IMG/VR virus record: IMGVR_UViG_2529292882_000016
Reading direction: 5' to 3' (one strand)
DNA: 45,980 bases
From: a virus
Lineage: Duplodnaviria; Heunggongvirae; Uroviricota; Caudoviricetes
Shown here piece after piece: positions 698 to 35,517 of this stretch (positions are counted from its first letter, which is position 1; each line of letters starts with the position of its first letter). The notes under the pieces are model-generated. The model ran no database searches. It saw only the letters and a list, made by a program, of their open reading frames with translations, and was not told the origin of the DNA. The position numbers were made by a program, and so were the translations under genes.

Positions 698-1060
698 GGG
701 GCTGATTCTGGATTCGACGGGATTTGCGAAACCCAAGGTGCATGCCGAGGGGCGGTTGGCCTCGTAAAAAGCCGCAAAAAATAGTCGCAAACGACGAAAA
801 CTACGCTTTAGCAGCTTAATAACCTGCTTAGAGCCCTCTCTCCCTAGCCTCCGCTCTTAGGACGGGGATCAAGAGAGGTCAAACCCAAAAGAGATCGCGT
901 GGAAGCCCTGCCTGGGGTTGAAGCGTTAAAACTTAATCAGGCTAGTTTGTTAGTGGCGTGTCCGTCCGCAGCTGGCAAGCGAATGTAAAGACTGACTAAG
1001 CATGTAGTACCGAGGATGTAGGAATTTCGGACGCGGGTTCAACTCCCGCCAGCTCCACCA
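698..1060 (+). ncRNA. ssrA: tmRNA (SsrA, transfer-messenger RNA)
   Basis: Starts GGGGCTGATTCTGGATTCGACGGG, contains the tag-reading-frame region (GCAAACGACGAAAACTACGCTTTAGCAGCTTAA) and ends GGGTTCAACTCCCGCCAGCTCCACCA; about 363 nt, matching E. coli ssrA. Confidence 0.95.
1034..1060. repeat. 27-bp direct repeat CGGGTTCAACTCCCGCCAGCTCCACCA (att core at the intact ssrA end)
   Basis: Identical 27-mer recurs at 41072..41098; flanking bases differ on both sides (g/a upstream, c/a downstream). Confidence 0.85.
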
Positions 1061-28503: not shown

Positions 28504-28760
28504 CAGCGCAGTACCTCCTGCACCAGTTTTTCGAACTTTCCAACTTTGGTTTCCAGCTCTGCCACACAATCCACCAGCTCATCCACTGCTTTTTGTGCGC
28601 GGTGTTTCGCCTGCATCAGTTCCCTGAGCGCTGGCACCATATCCTTACGAATGGCATCTTTTGTTACGCCTGTCTTTTCCAGTTGTTCCGCCTGTCGTAA
28701 CATTTCCTGTGCCTGTTTACGTAATTGTTCAGGCGTAAAAGTCATGGTCTGGTTGTTCAA
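28503..28760 (-). CDS. Hypothetical protein (85 aa)
   Basis: Helical, between DnaB-like gene and Q; overlapping start/stop junctions. Confidence 0.45.
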   Translation of the reverse strand: MNNQTMTFTPEQLRKQAQEMLRQAEQLEKTGVTKDAIRKDMVPALRELMQAKHRAQKAVDELVDCVAELETKVGKFEKLVQEVLR

Positions 28761-30148
28761 AAGAAACGCTCCATCTTACTGCTGTCGGTTCGCTTATTGC
28801 TGTATCTGCGCGGCTGGGGCTGCTGCATTGGGGTGGAAAGAATCTGTGCGCTTTCCTGATCCACAGGCAGAAAATGTCCGTTATAAAAACGCCGGTAAAT
28901 CGTTCCCAGAGAACCGTTACGTTGTTTCGTGATATTGATTTCTGCGATGCCCCTGGCCTGCGTATCCGGGTTGTACACTTCATCCCTGTAAAGCATCAGA
29001 ATGATGTCTGCATCCGCCTCTATTTCTCCGGAATTTTTCAGGTCTGAGTTCATAGGGCGTTTATTGGGCCTGGACTCCACACCACGGGAAAGCTGGCTCA
29101 GCGCAATCAACGGAAAACCACCGGATTTTGCCAGGCCTTTAAGCCCCTTTGAGATTTCACCCACGGCAAGGTCATGACGCCCCGTGGTTCGGGTTTTTAT
29201 CAGCCCGAGATAATCAACCACCACCAGCGCCGTTTCCGGATGTTTAATCAGGTGATGTTTCGTTGTTGCGCATATCTCATCAATGGTCAGGTTCGCCTGG
29301 TCCACCATCCAGATATTGCGCCCGGTCATCCGCCCCACTCCTTGTGAGAAACGTGCCCAATCTTCGTCTTCAAAGTGAGTGACAGATTTCAGGCGTGATA
29401 CCGGCATTCCTCCAGCCGCAGATACCATGCGTTCACCAATCTGGATGTTCGCCATTTCCATTGTGAACAGAAGGACACCATGCCCCTGCTCAGTCACCTT
29501 GTCGATGATATCCAGCGCCAGTTCGGTTTTGCCCATTGACGGACGAGCCGCAATAAATACCAGATCGCCGGGCTCCATGCCGCCTGTTTTTGCGTCCAGT
29601 TCATCAATACCGGTCATCAACGTTCTGGATTTTTCCAGTCCCTGATTCCGGCATTCAACACGCTCAACCACTTCCGGAAGCACATCATCAATATGTACCG
29701 GCTGAATAACGCCCTTTTCCGTCGACAATGAGGCCATCATGTTCTGCGCATCCTTCAGGGCATCTTCAGCTGCTTCACAGGTATGCGCATCACGTAATTT
29801 CTGCAACGCCTCATTCAGCGTCTTTTCTGCATCACGCAGTGCGGCATTGCGACGCAACGCTGCAACATAGTGCTCCAGTGAAGACTTCACCCAGGTTTTA
29901 CGCCCGGTATCAGTAATCACCGGAGCAAGTTCCGGCATCTCATTGCACAGCAGCACAGGATCAATCACACCTGAAACACGAGCCTGTCTGCAGATGCCTG
30001 TGTAGATATCCCGATACGCTCGTACAGAAAAAACGTCCGCAGGTAGTGTGGCCAGAATATCCATCACTTCAGGATCTGCCCCACGCAGAAAGAACGCGCC
30101 AATGACAGCGCCTTCTAGGTCATCGTTACGCCAGACTGGTGTTGTCAT
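28757..30148 (-). CDS. Replicative DNA helicase, DnaB family (~463 aa from ATG 30148)
   Basis: Walker A-like AARPSMGKTELALD and RecA-like C-terminal domain; ATG at 30148 overlaps the stop of the loader-like gene (ATGA). Confidence 0.85.
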   Translation of the reverse strand: MTTPVWRNDDLEGAVIGAFFLRGADPEVMDILATLPADVFSVRAYRDIYTGICRQARVSGVIDPVLLCNEMPELAPVITDTGRKTWVKSSLEHYVAALRRNAALRDAEKTLNEALQKLRDAHTCEAAEDALKDAQNMMASLSTEKGVIQPVHIDDVLPEVVERVECRNQGLEKSRTLMTGIDELDAKTGGMEPGDLVFIAARPSMGKTELALDIIDKVTEQGHGVLLFTMEMANIQIGERMVSAAGGMPVSRLKSVTHFEDEDWARFSQGVGRMTGRNIWMVDQANLTIDEICATTKHHLIKHPETALVVVDYLGLIKTRTTGRHDLAVGEISKGLKGLAKSGGFPLIALSQLSRGVESRPNKRPMNSDLKNSGEIEADADIILMLYRDEVYNPDTQARGIAEINITKQRNGSLGTIYRRFYNGHFLPVDQESAQILSTPMQQPQPRRYSNKRTDSSKMERFF

Positions 30149-31032
30149 GCAGCCACACCTCTGATACGAGAACGGTAGCTGGGCCAGTTGAACGACAACC
30201 AGTTGCGCCCCCCGTCTGTGATCCTGTCGGCAATGCGGGGGCTGATGAACGCCCACAACTCTTCCGGTGAAAGGTTGCTGATCAGGATGGTGGGCAGGAT
30301 ACTTTCGTACCGGGCATTGATAATTTCCTGCAAAATAGCCATTTCAGCCGCGCTGCCAAACTGAACACCAACTTCGTCGATGATCAGCAAATCCATTGAC
30401 GCATAATGCTCAATAACTTCATCCGCTGTTTTTTCGCTGTCATTCCGCCAGCAGTTTTTCACAGCACGGGTAAGGCGCATCACGTCGGTGATCTCCACGC
30501 TGGCCAGATGATTACGGATGATGTGTTTTGCCATTGATACCGCCAGATGATTTTTCCCGGTACCGCAACTGCCAGTCATAACAAGACTGGTGCCGTTCTC
30601 CAGCATATCTGGCCAGTTCTCCGCATAGCGGCGACAGGCTGCAAGATTTCTGGCTGCGTCAGGATTAACCTCCAGATAGTTATCAAACTCACAGTCCCGA
30701 AAACGCAGGGCAATTCCGGCGTTATCAGTCAGCTCTTCCGCCTTGAGGGACGACAGCTCCATGGTCAAATCGTTGGCCTCAGCGATCAAGCAGTCAGGGC
30801 AGCATGAAATTTTTTCTCTGTCCTCGCCATTGCGATCGCTCCACACCAGTATATGCGTATGGTATTTACCGTGTTTTTCGCAATACCCGCGACCTTCACG
30901 CATCAGGCAGGAACGATAAGGCCATGGCTTTTCGCCCTTCTGAGCAAATGCAATCTCTGCCCGTAACTCATCCATTCGCGCCTGTAGTCTTGTTTGTTGT
31001 TCACGCAGGTTAAACGTCATCATCGCTGTCAC
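30145..31032 (-). CDS. DnaC/IstB-like AAA+ helicase loader with N-terminal Cys/His zinc-finger-like region (295 aa)
   Basis: Walker A GSCGTGKNHL and Walker B LLIIDEVG; between O-like and DnaB-like genes. Confidence 0.75.
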   Translation of the reverse strand: MTAMMTFNLREQQTRLQARMDELRAEIAFAQKGEKPWPYRSCLMREGRGYCEKHGKYHTHILVWSDRNGEDREKISCCPDCLIAEANDLTMELSSLKAEELTDNAGIALRFRDCEFDNYLEVNPDAARNLAACRRYAENWPDMLENGTSLVMTGSCGTGKNHLAVSMAKHIIRNHLASVEITDVMRLTRAVKNCWRNDSEKTADEVIEHYASMDLLIIDEVGVQFGSAAEMAILQEIINARYESILPTILISNLSPEELWAFISPRIADRITDGGRNWLSFNWPSYRSRIRGVAA

Positions 31033-31033
31033 C

Positions 31034-31858
31034 TCAGAATGTCAATTTGTCACTGGATTTACCGAATTTGTCAGACATGGCACCAAGGCCAGACAGGACA
31101 TCGACCTGTCGCTGTCGCCCACCTCCGGGAGCGGCTGGCTGTTGCCAGAAATCTTCGAAGTGACGATCGGGGCCAAAGAACGTCGCAGCCTGCTTCACGA
31201 ACTGTGTGCCGGTATTTCCTGTAGCACGTACCCAGGCGGCATAACGTCTCACACCATCAAGCATGGTCTCCGGTTTTATTCCCTCCCTGAGACGGGCTTT
31301 CCAGGCTTTGAAGGCTGCTGACTTGGAATTGCCACCAGCACGTTTGGGATATTCCTGCCAGACCTGTTCAAATTCCGGTGAATATTCCTGTCGGGCGGAA
31401 CGCGCTGGTGCAGACGCGTCAGCGGATGCGCCAATAGTTGATTCATTGACTGGTTCTTTGACTGGTTCAAAAGAGTGACTGGTTCTGGGTGAATCTCCTG
31501 CACTACCCCCTGGTGCAACTCCTGCACCACCTGGTGAATTTGCTGCACTAGGTAGTGAATTATTTGCACTACCACCTGGTGAATCTTTTGCACCATCAAG
31601 ACGAAGAAGATAAATATTGCTCGAGTTCCCTTTTTCACCTTTCCGGGAAACTTTTTTTACCAGTCCGGATTCACAAAGAGCCGTAATATGATTCATCACA
31701 GAACGTTTGCTAATCTCGCACTGATCAGCAATATGCTGATAGCTGGGCCAGCACTCGCCCTGATCGCTGGCATTATCAGCCAGCTTAATCAGAACCAGTT
31801 TTCGCAACGGATTTCCCACGCGAATTTTCATCGCTTTCACCATCAGCTCCATGCTCAT
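31034..31858 (-). CDS. Replication initiation protein, O-like, N-terminal winged HTH (274 aa)
   Basis: HTH-like N-terminus; central Gly/Ser/Pro linker encoded by the iteron array; first gene of the replication module. Confidence 0.6.
   Translation of the reverse strand: MSMELMVKAMKIRVGNPLRKLVLIKLADNASDQGECWPSYQHIADQCEISKRSVMNHITALCESGLVKKVSRKGEKGNSSNIYLLRLDGAKDSPGGSANNSLPSAANSPGGAGVAPGGSAGDSPRTSHSFEPVKEPVNESTIGASADASAPARSARQEYSPEFEQVWQEYPKRAGGNSKSAAFKAWKARLREGIKPETMLDGVRRYAAWVRATGNTGTQFVKQAATFFGPDRHFEDFWQQPAAPGGGRQRQVDVLSGLGAMSDKFGKSSDKLTF
31447..31620. repeat. Candidate replication origin: three TGACTGGTTC repeats plus about four ~21-bp iterons with core CACCACCTGGTGAAT, inside the O-like gene
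   Basis: TGACTGGTTC at 31447, 31459, 31476; iterons CTGCACTACCCCCTGGTGCAACT, CCTGCACCACCTGGTGAATTTG, CTGCACTAGGTAGTGAATTATTTG, CACTACCACCTGGTGAATCTTTT at 31498..31589. Confidence 0.5.
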
Positions 31859-32079
31859 AACACACCTCCCAGGCGTTTAAACATTTTTCCGGACTGAAAC
31901 ACCGCCAGTGGATAACTGATGGTGTAGTTACGCCCCAGTAATTCACACACAACTTTCTGGCTTTCGGTGCTGACCAGGCAAACCCGCAGAACGTGACCGT
32001 TGCTGGTGGCGAACCACTGCCCCACACGGGGGCAACGGTTGTATCGGTGATACAGGGAATTAACGATGCGACGAATCAT
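31855..32079 (-). CDS. Hypothetical protein (74 aa)
   Basis: ORF with start overlapping upstream stop; no motif recognised. Confidence 0.35.
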   Translation of the reverse strand: MIRRIVNSLYHRYNRCPRVGQWFATSNGHVLRVCLVSTESQKVVCELLGRNYTISYPLAVFQSGKMFKRLGGVL

Positions 32080-32285
32080 GGGCGCACCTCCGCCGTAGTG
32101 ATGTATTTAACCGGACTGCTTTTCATTGCGATGGTTTCACACATCTCCGCTGCTTTACGTTCCGCTGTTTTCCTGGATTTATAGCGGCGGTGCCAGACAG
32201 ATGTATCCGTGCGAACTGATACATCGTTTCTGTATTCCGTTGTAGAAATAATAATTTCGTAACTAATCATGGACGCGCCTCCCAT
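32076..32285 (-). CDS. Hypothetical protein (69 aa)
   Basis: ORF only; start may be the internal ATG at 32270. Confidence 0.35.
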   Translation of the reverse strand: MGGASMISYEIIISTTEYRNDVSVRTDTSVWHRRYKSRKTAERKAAEMCETIAMKSSPVKYITTAEVRP

Positions 32286-32929
32286 TGATTACGGCGGAAA
32301 GCAGTGTGATTCAGGCTGGTTTCAGCCTCATGGAATGCTTCAATACAGCTCTCGTAGTACCGCATTGTGCGCAGACTTAACCCAAGCTGAAGCATCATCA
32401 GGCCATCAAGGGTGATGTAATAACCACGCAGGGAGTCACCATAGATGTGATAAGTGCCCGGTATGAAATTGCGGGTAAAAAAATCGCGCGAGCAGTTCAG
32501 ATACTCGATTTTGTCGACGATGTTCTGGTGCATGCGCTTGAAGTGGCAGGCAACATGCAGGGAGAAAATAACAGCTTTGCCGTTGACGACTTCGATTTTC
32601 AGGTATGGGGAAGTTGGGACTGTAGCCATGATGGCAGCCTCCGTATGCAATGGATAACTTCCACCACCGGAGCTGCGAAACTCATGGGTGGTGAACTGAA
32701 CAGGGTTCGCAGTACCGGCGCATACGGAAACCGGCGAGCCTTTCGGCTCCCCTGCCCAGCCCACCATAATTCTGGCGTGCGCGAGCATGGACGATAAAAA
32801 AGACGCTGGCGCGTCGTATATCGCCGTATGCAATTCCGGGCTGCGACCCCCGGCACCCGCTTTATAAGGTGCAGAGACAGTGTAACGTCCCGAAATTGCA
32901 GAATCAATATTTAGGCTTGAAACATTCAT
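32267..32929 (-). CDS. Hypothetical early protein (220 aa)
   Basis: Long ORF in the early-right operon; no motif recognised. Confidence 0.45.
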   Translation of the reverse strand: MNVSSLNIDSAISGRYTVSAPYKAGAGGRSPELHTAIYDAPASFLSSMLAHARIMVGWAGEPKGSPVSVCAGTANPVQFTTHEFRSSGGGSYPLHTEAAIMATVPTSPYLKIEVVNGKAVIFSLHVACHFKRMHQNIVDKIEYLNCSRDFFTRNFIPGTYHIYGDSLRGYYITLDGLMMLQLGLSLRTMRYYESCIEAFHEAETSLNHTAFRRNQWEARP

Positions 32930-34759: not shown

Positions 34760-34840
34760 CACACTGGATACTCTGTTATCCAAGAATGTTAAACGCGAGA
34801 ACCCAAAGTATCAAGAAATTCTGTTACTTTAGTATCAGCA
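34760..34840. promoter_or_regulatory. Divergent promoter/operator region (OR-like) with repeated GTATC/GATAC half-sites
   Basis: GGATACTCTGTTATCC (34766..34781), AGTATCA at 34807 and 34831, TCTGTTAC at 34822; between the divergently transcribed cro-like and cI-like genes. Confidence 0.4.
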
Positions 34841-34860
34841 GCCATGAAAGGAGAAGAAAA

Positions 34861-35517
34861 ATGAAATCTTTAGGTGAACGCCTCATCAACGCACGACAAA
34901 AAGCTGGGTTAACGCAAGATGCGTTGGCTAAAAAAGCAGGGGTCACCAGAGTTGCAATCAGTAAAGCCGAGCAAGGCCTTACAAAAAGTTTCAACGGTGA
35001 CACCCTTTTTAAAGTCGCAGCTGCACTGCAGTGTTCACCGCAGTGGCTTCAGAACGGAGATGAAAAAGATAAGCATTGGGAAAATAATGTTAAGAGCTGC
35101 CCACAGAGAGACACAGCACACTCTTACCCTGTAATTAACTGGGTTCAGGCAGGATTATTCGCAACTGCTGGTGATGACTACAACATGTATGATCAGGATA
35201 ATTGGAGGCATTCTGTAAAATACGCTGGTGAGAGGGGGTTCTGGCTGGAAGTGCACGGAGACTCAATGACTTCGCCCGTAGGAATAACATTTCCTGAAGG
35301 AATGTCGATCCTTGTCAACCCAGATAAAGAAGTTTTTTCAGGGTGTTACGTCATCGCCAGAAAAAAATCTACCAATGAAGCAACATTCAAAAAATATATT
35401 TCTGAAATGGGAAAGGCGTTTCTAAAGCCCCTTAATCCACAATATCCAATCATAGAAATGGACAATGATTGCGAAATAGTAGGTGTTGTGGTTGATGCCA
35501 GGTGGGATATTTTCTGA
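34861..35517 (+). CDS. cI-type repressor, HTH plus LexA-like S24 peptidase domain (218 aa from ATG 34861)
   Basis: N-terminal HTH (LTQDALAKKAGVTRVAISKAEQG) and C-terminal S24-like region (WLEVHGDSMTSPVGITFPEGM...VIARKK...); AAGGAG RBS. Confidence 0.85.
   Translation: MKSLGERLINARQKAGLTQDALAKKAGVTRVAISKAEQGLTKSFNGDTLFKVAAALQCSPQWLQNGDEKDKHWENNVKSCPQRDTAHSYPVINWVQAGLFATAGDDYNMYDQDNWRHSVKYAGERGFWLEVHGDSMTSPVGITFPEGMSILVNPDKEVFSGCYVIARKKSTNEATFKKYISEMGKAFLKPLNPQYPIIEMDNDCEIVGVVVDARWDIF

Follow-up and report, generated by a model that had tools for sequence, protein, structure and literature searches.

A probable replication origin inside the initiator gene of a lambdoid prophage, with a codon-constrained repeat module beside its iterons

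The viral record IMGVR_UViG_2529292882_000016 of IMG/VR (Caudoviricetes) is a DNA stretch of 45,980 base pairs (bp), referred to here as the window, and represents a lambdoid prophage. Positions 31447-31593, located inside its replication initiator gene, probably constitute the replication origin of the prophage. The segment contains an array of five imperfect dyads, followed in the direction of the gene by a module of 10-nucleotide (nt) direct repeats whose codons are nearly frozen among divergent relatives. The initiator belongs to a little-studied protein family that is different from lambda O.

A lambda-style origin within the initiator gene is the kind of feature that a lambdoid prophage would be expected to have; the interest lies in the conserved module. 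Judged by the accessible literature, the family-wide, codon-frozen GAACCAGTCA module and the covariation of the recognition helix with the dyads are what is new. We found no description of an origin or of iterons for this initiator family, although an earlier one is possible, as most older papers in subscription journals lay outside the search. A sequence-only reading of the window had proposed a lambda-ori-like origin at this place. Its linker-coding iterons within the initiator gene and the lambda layout are retained here, while the repeat unit, the copy number, the AT-rich tract and the homology to O are not.

An array of five dyads in the linker-coding region

The array is formed by five 15-bp dyads, which read GTGCA-N5-TKCAC on the gene strand and GTGMA-N5-TGCAC on the + strand (Table 1). 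They occupy positions 31489-31503, 31513-31527, 31534-31548, 31555-31569 and 31579-31593, with a centre-to-centre spacing of 24/21/21/24 bp, or about two helical turns. An iteron array would be expected to hold at least three to four dyad-symmetric repeats at such a distance, and five are present. The pattern GTGMANNNNNTKCAC has five matches in the 45,980 bp, all of them within 31489-31593. Dinucleotide-preserving shuffles give an expectation of 0.23, and none of 100 shuffles reaches five matches. All five dyads share one reading frame in this window.

The sequence-only reading had described about four 21-bp iterons with the core CACCTGGTG. It was right about the existence of a second repeat class and wrong about its unit and number. 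Exact CACCTGGTG occurs only twice, at 31528 and 31573, where it forms the junction joining neighbouring dyads, and we reject it as the iteron core in favour of the 15-bp dyad in five copies. The junctions differ in close relatives (TAGGGGGTA, TATCTG, CAGGTA), whereas GTGCA-N5-TKCAC is constant there. In a repeat-finder check as suggested with that reading, Tandem Repeats Finder gives only a 12-nt period at 31442-31469 and leaves the 21-24-bp array unreported, because the dyad core alone is conserved between units.

Table 1 Features of the window and dyad classes of the initiator family
Feature	Position	Strand	Remarks
Replication initiator gene, 274 aa	31034..31858	-	winged-helix N-domain, disordered linker, helical C-domain, disordered tail
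N-terminal winged-helix domain coding region, aa 1-88	31595..31858	-	presumed iteron reader
AT-richer tract of the sequence-only reading	31596..31620	-	last wing strand (NIYLLRLD); 32% GC
Iteron array, five 15-bp imperfect dyads	31489..31593	-	encodes aa 89-124; pattern count and codon map
Conserved repeat module	31447..31488	-	encodes RTSHSFEPVKEPV; family-wide core 31452-31488
Helical C-domain coding region, aa 159-233	31160..31384	-	presumed partner-recruiting domain, exchangeable module
DnaC/IstB-like helicase loader gene	30145..31032	-	start probably ATG at 31023
DnaB-family replicative helicase gene	28757..30148	-	likely start ATG at 30148, overlapping the loader stop codon
Dyad class GTGCA..TKCAC			this window, SfV
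Dyad class GGGCAGGAGCTGCCC			Min27
Dyad class ATGCC-N7-GGCAC			Klebsiella phage RothC
Dyad class CTGTGCC-N7-GCACAG			Pectobacterium phage ZF40
Dyad class TGTAGGCC...			Pseudomonas prophages
Dyad class GTGAAAATNTTKCAC			L177/L186-type loci
Dyad class TATGCCAGCAGATAGCAC, four copies			Aggregatibacter phage S1249
Dyad class GTGAC-N5-GTCAC			Vibrio phage D160
Dyad class GTGTA-N5-TACAC			L121
aa, amino acid residues.

Variation of the dyads among relatives

More than 100 related loci were compared, with homologs collected either by protein similarity (annotated phages) or by a DNA pattern (IMG/VR). Across 25 clusters of the N-domain, each iteron class is paired with a distinct sequence of the predicted recognition-helix region (about residues 48-66; EISKRSVMNHITALCESG), and the first 47 residues are nearly constant. 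Between subfamilies the two half-sites change symmetrically, as in GTGcA/TgCAC, GgGCA/TGCcC, GTGAc/gTCAC and GTGtA/TaCAC.

In the loci L190, L092, L108, L170, L185 and L181, whose iterons are of the window's class or of other classes, one unit is spaced 23 and 22 nt from its neighbours, which places it in another frame. This unit encodes VQEIHQ instead of SAGDSP, with the DNA motif kept. Genes for near-identical proteins carry anywhere from 2 to 8 dyads, and cdtI has eight of the same units. Three observations, namely the varying frames, the symmetric half-site changes with their covariation with the recognition helix, and the varying copy number, lead us to regard the repeats as DNA elements; the dyads are selected as DNA and not as peptide. 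At 31276-31638 (-), a 120-residue open reading frame (ORF) overlaps the initiator gene in a different frame and translates the repeats as VQKIHQVVVQIIHYLVQQIHQVVQELHQ. The absence of stops from the repeats most likely makes this ORF an artefact; its frame is that of the out-of-frame iterons in some relatives.

The same data bear on the proposal that the repeats are a low-complexity Gly/Ser/Ala/Pro linker, grown by replication slippage and devoid of DNA function. The segment is predicted to be disordered, the range of 2-8 units in near-identical proteins is what slippage would give, and the single frame of the five units in this window is compatible with a peptide repeat. Dyad symmetry, however, is meaningless for a peptide, the out-of-frame units keep the DNA motif, and the symmetric half-site changes track the recognition helix. 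In the adjacent module, GAACCAGTCA is kept across frames and synonymous sites are frozen. The codon-identity test described below and the out-of-frame units largely refute the linker proposal, and we regard it as highly improbable.

The tblastn matches of the initiator fall into two groups, one comprising the N-domain and the repeats (residues 1-138/143) and the other the C-domain only (from residues 126-158). Homologs that share only residues 1-138/143 keep the layout of iterons followed by the conserved element. The phiP27 protein L17 (L084:1976-2902) is 97.7% identical over residues 142-274 and shares the DnaC and helicase genes, with a different N-domain of the HTH_36 family. Its dyads are TCAGAWTCTGA in five copies, followed by two copies of AAAACATGATCCGCAAG, and it offers a natural domain-swap partner for specificity tests. 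Iterons that covary with the N-domain (25 clusters) and an exchangeable C-domain (phiP27) are thus both found. The N-domain family is combined with DnaC and DnaB, with a P-like loader (RothC, S1249), with a DnaB-like helicase alone (ZF40), with a primase-helicase (Min27, phiXuzhou21) or with no adjacent replication gene (cdtI). This pattern points to module exchange as in the lambdoid O genes. In hybrids of lambda, phi80 and 82, the specificity for iterons reportedly lies in the N-terminal part of O and that for the partner in the C-terminal part. The Min27 'O' protein (L083:2501-3169, 222 residues) diverges from its near-identical phiXuzhou21 homolog (258 residues) just after the module, which looks like a frameshift in the Min27 record.

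A two-part design with other sequences is seen in distant HTH_36 initiators. Vibrio phage 252E42.2 has five copies of GGTGACAGAGAGTCAC and then TCCTAAC about every 12 nt, while Pseudomonas phage MD8 has seven dyads and then four GAACC at a spacing of 11-13 nt.

A conserved repeat module after the iterons

On the gene strand, the module reads CCA-GAACCAGTCA-CTCTTTT-GAACCAGTCA-AA-GAACCAGTCA, with a spacing of 17 and then 12 nt. The three direct repeats reported by the sequence-only reading are confirmed: on the + strand, exact TGACTGGTTC is located at 31447, 31459 and 31476, with no further exact copy anywhere in the window. A degenerate fourth 12-mer, GAATCAACTATT, lies at 31435-31446, past the third GAACCAGTCA. 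Direct repeats with a period of about 12-13 nt beside the iterons, which mark the unwinding element of iteron plasmids, are represented here by the three GAACCAGTCA copies and the degenerate fourth. The three copies encode residues 125-138. Translation passes through copies 1 and 2, 17 nt apart, in two frames and gives (R)TSH and EPV.

The element CCAGAACCAGTCACTCTTTTGAACCAGTCAAWGAACC (about 37 nt) follows the last dyad, with few changes at most, in every tblastn homolog of 47-58% overall identity; these are phages of Escherichia, Vibrio, Klebsiella and Pectobacterium. It is also present in Aggregatibacter phage S1249, which is matched over residues 1-88 only. The distance from the start of the last dyad to the ACC codon of the module is always 20-21 nt.

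To compare constraint at the DNA level, codon identity was counted at identical residues in eight divergent homologs chosen by protein similarity, with 12 module codons compared. It amounts to 176/186 (94.6%) in the module and 509/1432 (35.5%) in the N-domain, in pairs that are not phylogenetically independent, so that the P value is indicative only. Even with this limit, the contrast is very large. Invariant residues of the N-domain use 2-6 different codons each, which indicates that its synonymous sites are saturated, whereas those of the module use essentially one. In mEp044 (55% identity over residues 1-87), AACCAGTCA occurs twice in a different frame and encodes a different peptide, PNQSYITSK. 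Recent transfer of a larger block is ruled out as an explanation, because per-position conservation shows that the flanks of the module are unconserved.

A constraint on the peptide would be an alternative source of this conservation, with a motif RTSHSxEPVxEP contacting a host or phage replication protein and the codons being secondary. The peptide is nearly invariant in the family, and short linear motifs are known in the linkers of initiators, such as the clamp-binding motifs of TrfA (PMC4980987). Selection on the peptide would nevertheless leave synonymous sites free, as they are in the N-domain and are not in the module. In addition, mEp044 keeps the DNA motif with another peptide, and two of the 10-mers of a single gene encode different peptides. 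There is little room left for this explanation.

Exact matches to the 25-nt pattern ACCAGTCACNCTNNNGAACCAGTCA were obtained in at least 120 contigs of IMG/VR and, among representative genomes, in 86 species, which are all gammaproteobacterial wherever the record gives a taxon. Among the genera are Pseudomonas, Xenorhabdus, Photorhabdus, Shewanella, Vibrio, Haemophilus, Microbulbifer, Providencia and Erwinia. Of the genome loci, 69 have a complete ORF upstream, and the N-domain signature KLADNA is present in 66 of these 69. In Pseudomonas prophages, and in these relatives only, the module forms a relative GC dip, with about 45% GC between flanks of 58-65%.

The position of the module at the boundary of the exchangeable parts could also point to a homology patch for recombination between N- and C-modules, in which case the dyads could still be iterons. 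Matches to the N-domain only extend to residues 138-143, residue 142 is the first of the C-domain shared with phiP27, and the lambda record annotates recombination junctions just after the iterons. On the other hand, phiP27 shares the C-domain without the element, which is therefore not needed for that exchange. The element is held at a fixed distance and phase to the last iteron, it persists at about 45% GC inside Pseudomonas genes of 60-65% GC, and analogous repeats of about 12 nt and unrelated sequence follow the iterons of distant initiators. These observations favour a part of the element in the mechanism, and we consider a recombination patch unlikely.

The element tracks the divergence of the N-domain. 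It is altered in mEp044, reduced to GAACC in MD8 (40% identity over residues 1-74) and absent in 252E42.2, as it is at 27% identity; it is also absent from lambda and phiP27, which have the same host. Since its occurrence goes with the family of the N-domain instead of the host, the initiator, and not a host factor, may be what reads the module. It is possible that CCAGAACCAGTCACTCTTTTGAACCAGTCAAWGAACC represents a sequence-specific origin core, not previously described, that is common to a large family of temperate-phage initiators across Gammaproteobacteria (Escherichia to Vibrio, Haemophilus, Shewanella and Pseudomonas), where it would replace the generic AT-rich tract, with the conserved part of the initiator as its reader. 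We put this broader proposal forward only tentatively. If it is true, the dyads beside the core may form a 'recognition code' series for a single winged-helix scaffold.

Two further occurrences of related motifs were noted. In Min27-type loci (L083:2730-2760; L167, L119, L150), the dyads are preceded by an additional (T/G)AACCAGTC(A/G)AA where the coding region of the N-domain ends (ELNQSN). The motif thus flanks the array on both sides in this subfamily, and the window has no such upstream copy. An inverted copy, CAGAACCAGT, at 31790-31799 (+) in the N-domain coding region was considered as a flanking site and rejected as probably due to chance, because the codons for K-L-V-L vary freely in relatives.

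Duplex stability and arguments against an origin

The sequence-only reading placed an AT-richer tract after the iterons. The tract exists at 31596-31620, with a GC content below the 50% of the gene, yet its stability is unremarkable (about the 8th percentile of the window for 40-bp duplexes) and it lies on the wrong side. Since the initiator gene runs on the minus strand, the tract is upstream of the iterons, on the N-domain side. We rejected it as an unwinding element: its codons specify folded residues, and the matching codons are GC-rich in Pseudomonas relatives. It is probably no origin element. The position that matches the AT-rich region of lambda, between the iterons and the C-domain, is filled by the TGACTGGTTC/GAACCAGTCA repeats.

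Several results speak against an origin at 31447-31593. A strongly AT-rich unwinding tract is absent on the C-terminal side of the iterons, where 31436-31488 has 41.5% GC and a 40-bp duplex stability in the 13th-15th percentile of the window. The 40 bp that follow downstream of the module (31390-31430) belong to the most stable stretches of the whole window (99.9th percentile). In the plasmid database, there is no small plasmid that relies on the initiator gene alone; matches to the full architecture are all phage-sized circles of about 40 kb, and the search otherwise gave only chromosome-sized records. The comparative evidence also has its limits, as the loci found by DNA pattern are ascertained for the element and the tblastn homologs alone are unbiased, and as the pairs in the codon test are related to one another. 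The stretch 31390-31430 is also among the most GC-rich 40-bp stretches, contains the palindrome GACGCGTC and is part of the module shared with phiP27.

The lack of a marked AT-rich tract next to the array would fit a role of the dyads as regulatory sites of the initiator or another winged-helix protein, in autoregulation, as a transcription roadblock or in copy-number control by handcuffing, with the origin elsewhere. Iterons of plasmids also act in control (PMC4980987). Against such a role, neither repeat has another copy in the 46-kb window, so that there is no second iteron cluster, and the position and modularity of the array match the proven in-gene origins of lambda and SPP1 (PMC7466680, PMC6316719). 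A DNA-constrained module at a fixed distance is also hard to explain for a simple operator. Purely regulatory sites are thus a minor alternative, and we favour the origin.

The initiator protein

The initiator matches the Pfam family HTH_36 (PF13730) at residues 17-67 with E = 2.6e-11 (43.6 bits against a cut-off of 25), and DnaD_N weakly and below its cut-off (E = 3.5e-5). PF13730 is found in all homologs listed (the best 120 of 5,597). PHROG assigns the protein to families 270 ('replication initiation protein', 6.5e-90) and 8540 ('replication initiation O-like', 1.4e-61), and to 391, which is likewise O-like. The 'O-like' label of the sequence-only reading is therefore shared by some databases and suits the architecture, while homology to the lambda O family is unsupported: no match to Phage_rep_O (PF04492) was obtained even at E <= 10, in a run in which lambda O itself scored 123 bits (5.7e-36).

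In the AlphaFold2 model, the N-domain has an H-H-H-H plus beta-hairpin layout with a predicted local distance difference test score (pLDDT) of 75-88. The linker (residues 94-158) is predicted to be disordered, with a pLDDT below 50, and the helices of the C-domain reach 61-70. PHROG matches of the C-domain are to 'DnaD-like helicase loader' and to C-terminal parts of replication proteins. The array is thus placed between a DNA-binding N-domain and a C-domain and encodes a flexible linker, as in lambda-type origins, which bears out the earlier claim that the iterons encode the inter-domain linker.

Foldseek returned only generic winged-helix matches (E >= 0.02), including DnaD-N (2v79) and the N-domain of staphylococcal RepA (4pql/5kbj), and for this reason no specific structural family can be claimed. 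A sequence search of the PDB with the initiator gave one spurious low-complexity match only. Rfam contains no RNA family matching 31000-32000, and a scan of 30900-32400 for promoter and terminator consensus sequences found none; an RNA element or internal promoter is therefore unsupported. No IHF or DnaA-box consensus was seen by eye in 31380-31640, of which no systematic scan was made.

The last 25-30 residues or so (window 31034-31110, residues ~250-274) exist in at least three unrelated versions among close homologs, ending in ...LSGLGAMSDKFGKSSDKLTF, ...PYFKASYDNVDYSQIPAGFRG and ...SGFSEQNYGSTSVKW. These versions may match different downstream partners.

Comparison with known origins

Among the closest known systems is lambda, whose origin is located within the initiator gene, as proposed here, between the N-terminal DNA-binding and C-terminal partner-binding domains. 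Lambda has four 18-bp iterons at a spacing of 20/24/23 bp (39034, 39054, 39078, 39101), encoding residues 117-145, compared with the five dyads that encode residues 89-124 here. Both systems have 4-6 dyad-symmetric iterons about two helical turns apart, which are exchanged along with the N-domain (PMC7466680). The iterons of lambda-type Shiga-toxin (Stx) phages also vary in copy number, and lambda O binds single-stranded DNA from its AT-rich region (PMC7466680). In both systems a second origin element is found on the C-terminal side of the iterons. In lambda it is a tract of about 80% AT, whereas here it is the 41.5% GC module of exact 10-nt direct repeats, which is conserved in the family. 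The proteins differ as well: lambda combines an initiator of the O family (Phage_rep_O) with P, which hijacks the host DnaB, while the window encodes an HTH_36 initiator with a phage DnaC-like loader and DnaB-like helicase.

In the origin oriL of SPP1, located in gene 38, the order of initiator, loader and DnaB-type helicase (gp38/gp39/gp40) is the same as here, with repeats inside the initiator gene next to an unwinding element (PMC6316719). SPP1 differs by its direct repeats with an AT-rich unwinding element, a second origin (oriR) and a Gram-positive host, and no sequence relationship was detected.

The plasmid origins of RK2 (oriV/TrfA) and F (RepE) have winged-helix initiators that bind iterons, and nearby repeats with a period of about 12-13 nt that are sequence-specific and bound as single strands (PMC4980987, PMC4081077). 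By analogy, these 13-mers are the best available model for the GAACCAGTCA(AW) 12-mers. The origins of RK2 and F are intergenic and AT-rich, whereas the repeats here are coding and only moderately AT-rich. DnaD N-terminal domains and staphylococcal RepA_N proteins show a weak winged-helix likeness (Foldseek 2v79, 4pql and 5kbj at E ~0.05-0.1), which is generic and no evidence of membership.

Among phages, the replication gene has 97.7% identity to its counterpart in Escherichia phage PhiR49_2 and about 87% to those in SfV, mEp460, cdtI and Stx2a_WGPS2. The latter (AP012537) is the type of the 'Eru6' replication region, which has Rha-family genes between cI and the replication genes (PMC8951638). 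Eru6 typing uses gene content, and neither that study nor its predecessor mentions iterons or an origin (PMC8951638). The Eru6 Stx phages, SfV (orf39), mEp460 and cdtI share the initiator family and the iteron class with the window, at 87% nt identity over 87% of the gene, with Rha/Ash genes upstream. In the comparison with Stx2a_WGPS2 the gene is 87% identical over nt 112-825 and its 3' end is unmatched. The matches to these phages stop before the last ~25 codons, and C-terminal tails of several types are found.

Proposed mechanism

The sequence comparison shows the anatomy described above, DNA-level selection on both repeat classes, covariation of iterons and the recognition-helix region, and modular exchange of C-domains and partner genes. 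For binding, unwinding, helicase loading and origin activity, we infer the following scheme. The N-domain, probably as dimers, would bind the five dyads on one helix face, forming a complex similar to the 'O-some' of lambda. This complex would destabilise or capture the adjacent GAACCAGTCA module, where lambda has its AT-rich tract. The C-domain would then recruit the phage DnaC-like loader and the DnaB-like helicase, encoded directly downstream, onto the opened DNA.

Neighbouring genes and prophage context

The gene directly downstream of the initiator matches Pfam IstB_IS21 (2.1e-15) and PHROG 50 ('DnaC-like helicase loader', 7.5e-90), as well as NCBIfam DnaC (2.8e-38) below its cut-off. Its homolog in PhiR49_2 is annotated as 879 nt. 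The helicase gene matches Pfam DnaB_C (9.8e-73), TIGR00665 (1.1e-92) and, from residue 37 of the long ORF, PHROG 19; its PhiR49_2 homolog has 1392 nt. Upstream of the initiator are two small ORFs, an Ash+Rha ORF (32267-32929), a Rha ORF and ORFs similar to cII and cro; at 34786-35517, in divergent orientation, there is a gene for a cI-like repressor with a LexA-like C-terminal part.

Two small RNAs are located inside the Ash+Rha ORF, three genes upstream of the initiator: a C4 antisense RNA (RF01695, 83.3 bits) at 32684-32771 (-) and an isrK Hfq-binding RNA (RF01394, 57 bits) at 32796-32872 (-). They suggest P1/P7-type antisense control of an antirepressor-like gene. A full-length transfer-messenger RNA (ssrA; Rfam RF00023, 295.8 bits) at 698-1060 (+) indicates that the prophage adjoins ssrA, a common phage integration site.

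Implications

This initiator family drives the replication of many prophages, including the Eru6-type Shiga-toxin phages, whose replication amplifies the toxin genes (PMC8951638). Its proteins are named by NCBI only as 'helix-turn-helix domain-containing protein'. The 25-nt motif is a simple marker by which the probable origin can be located in prophages from at least 86 species of Gammaproteobacteria. The region also illustrates clearly how function as DNA can be the main constraint on a coding sequence. The paired variation of helix and dyad across at least 10 classes constitutes a ready-made data set on DNA reading by winged-helix proteins, which could also help in designing phage or plasmid replicons that are orthogonal to each other.

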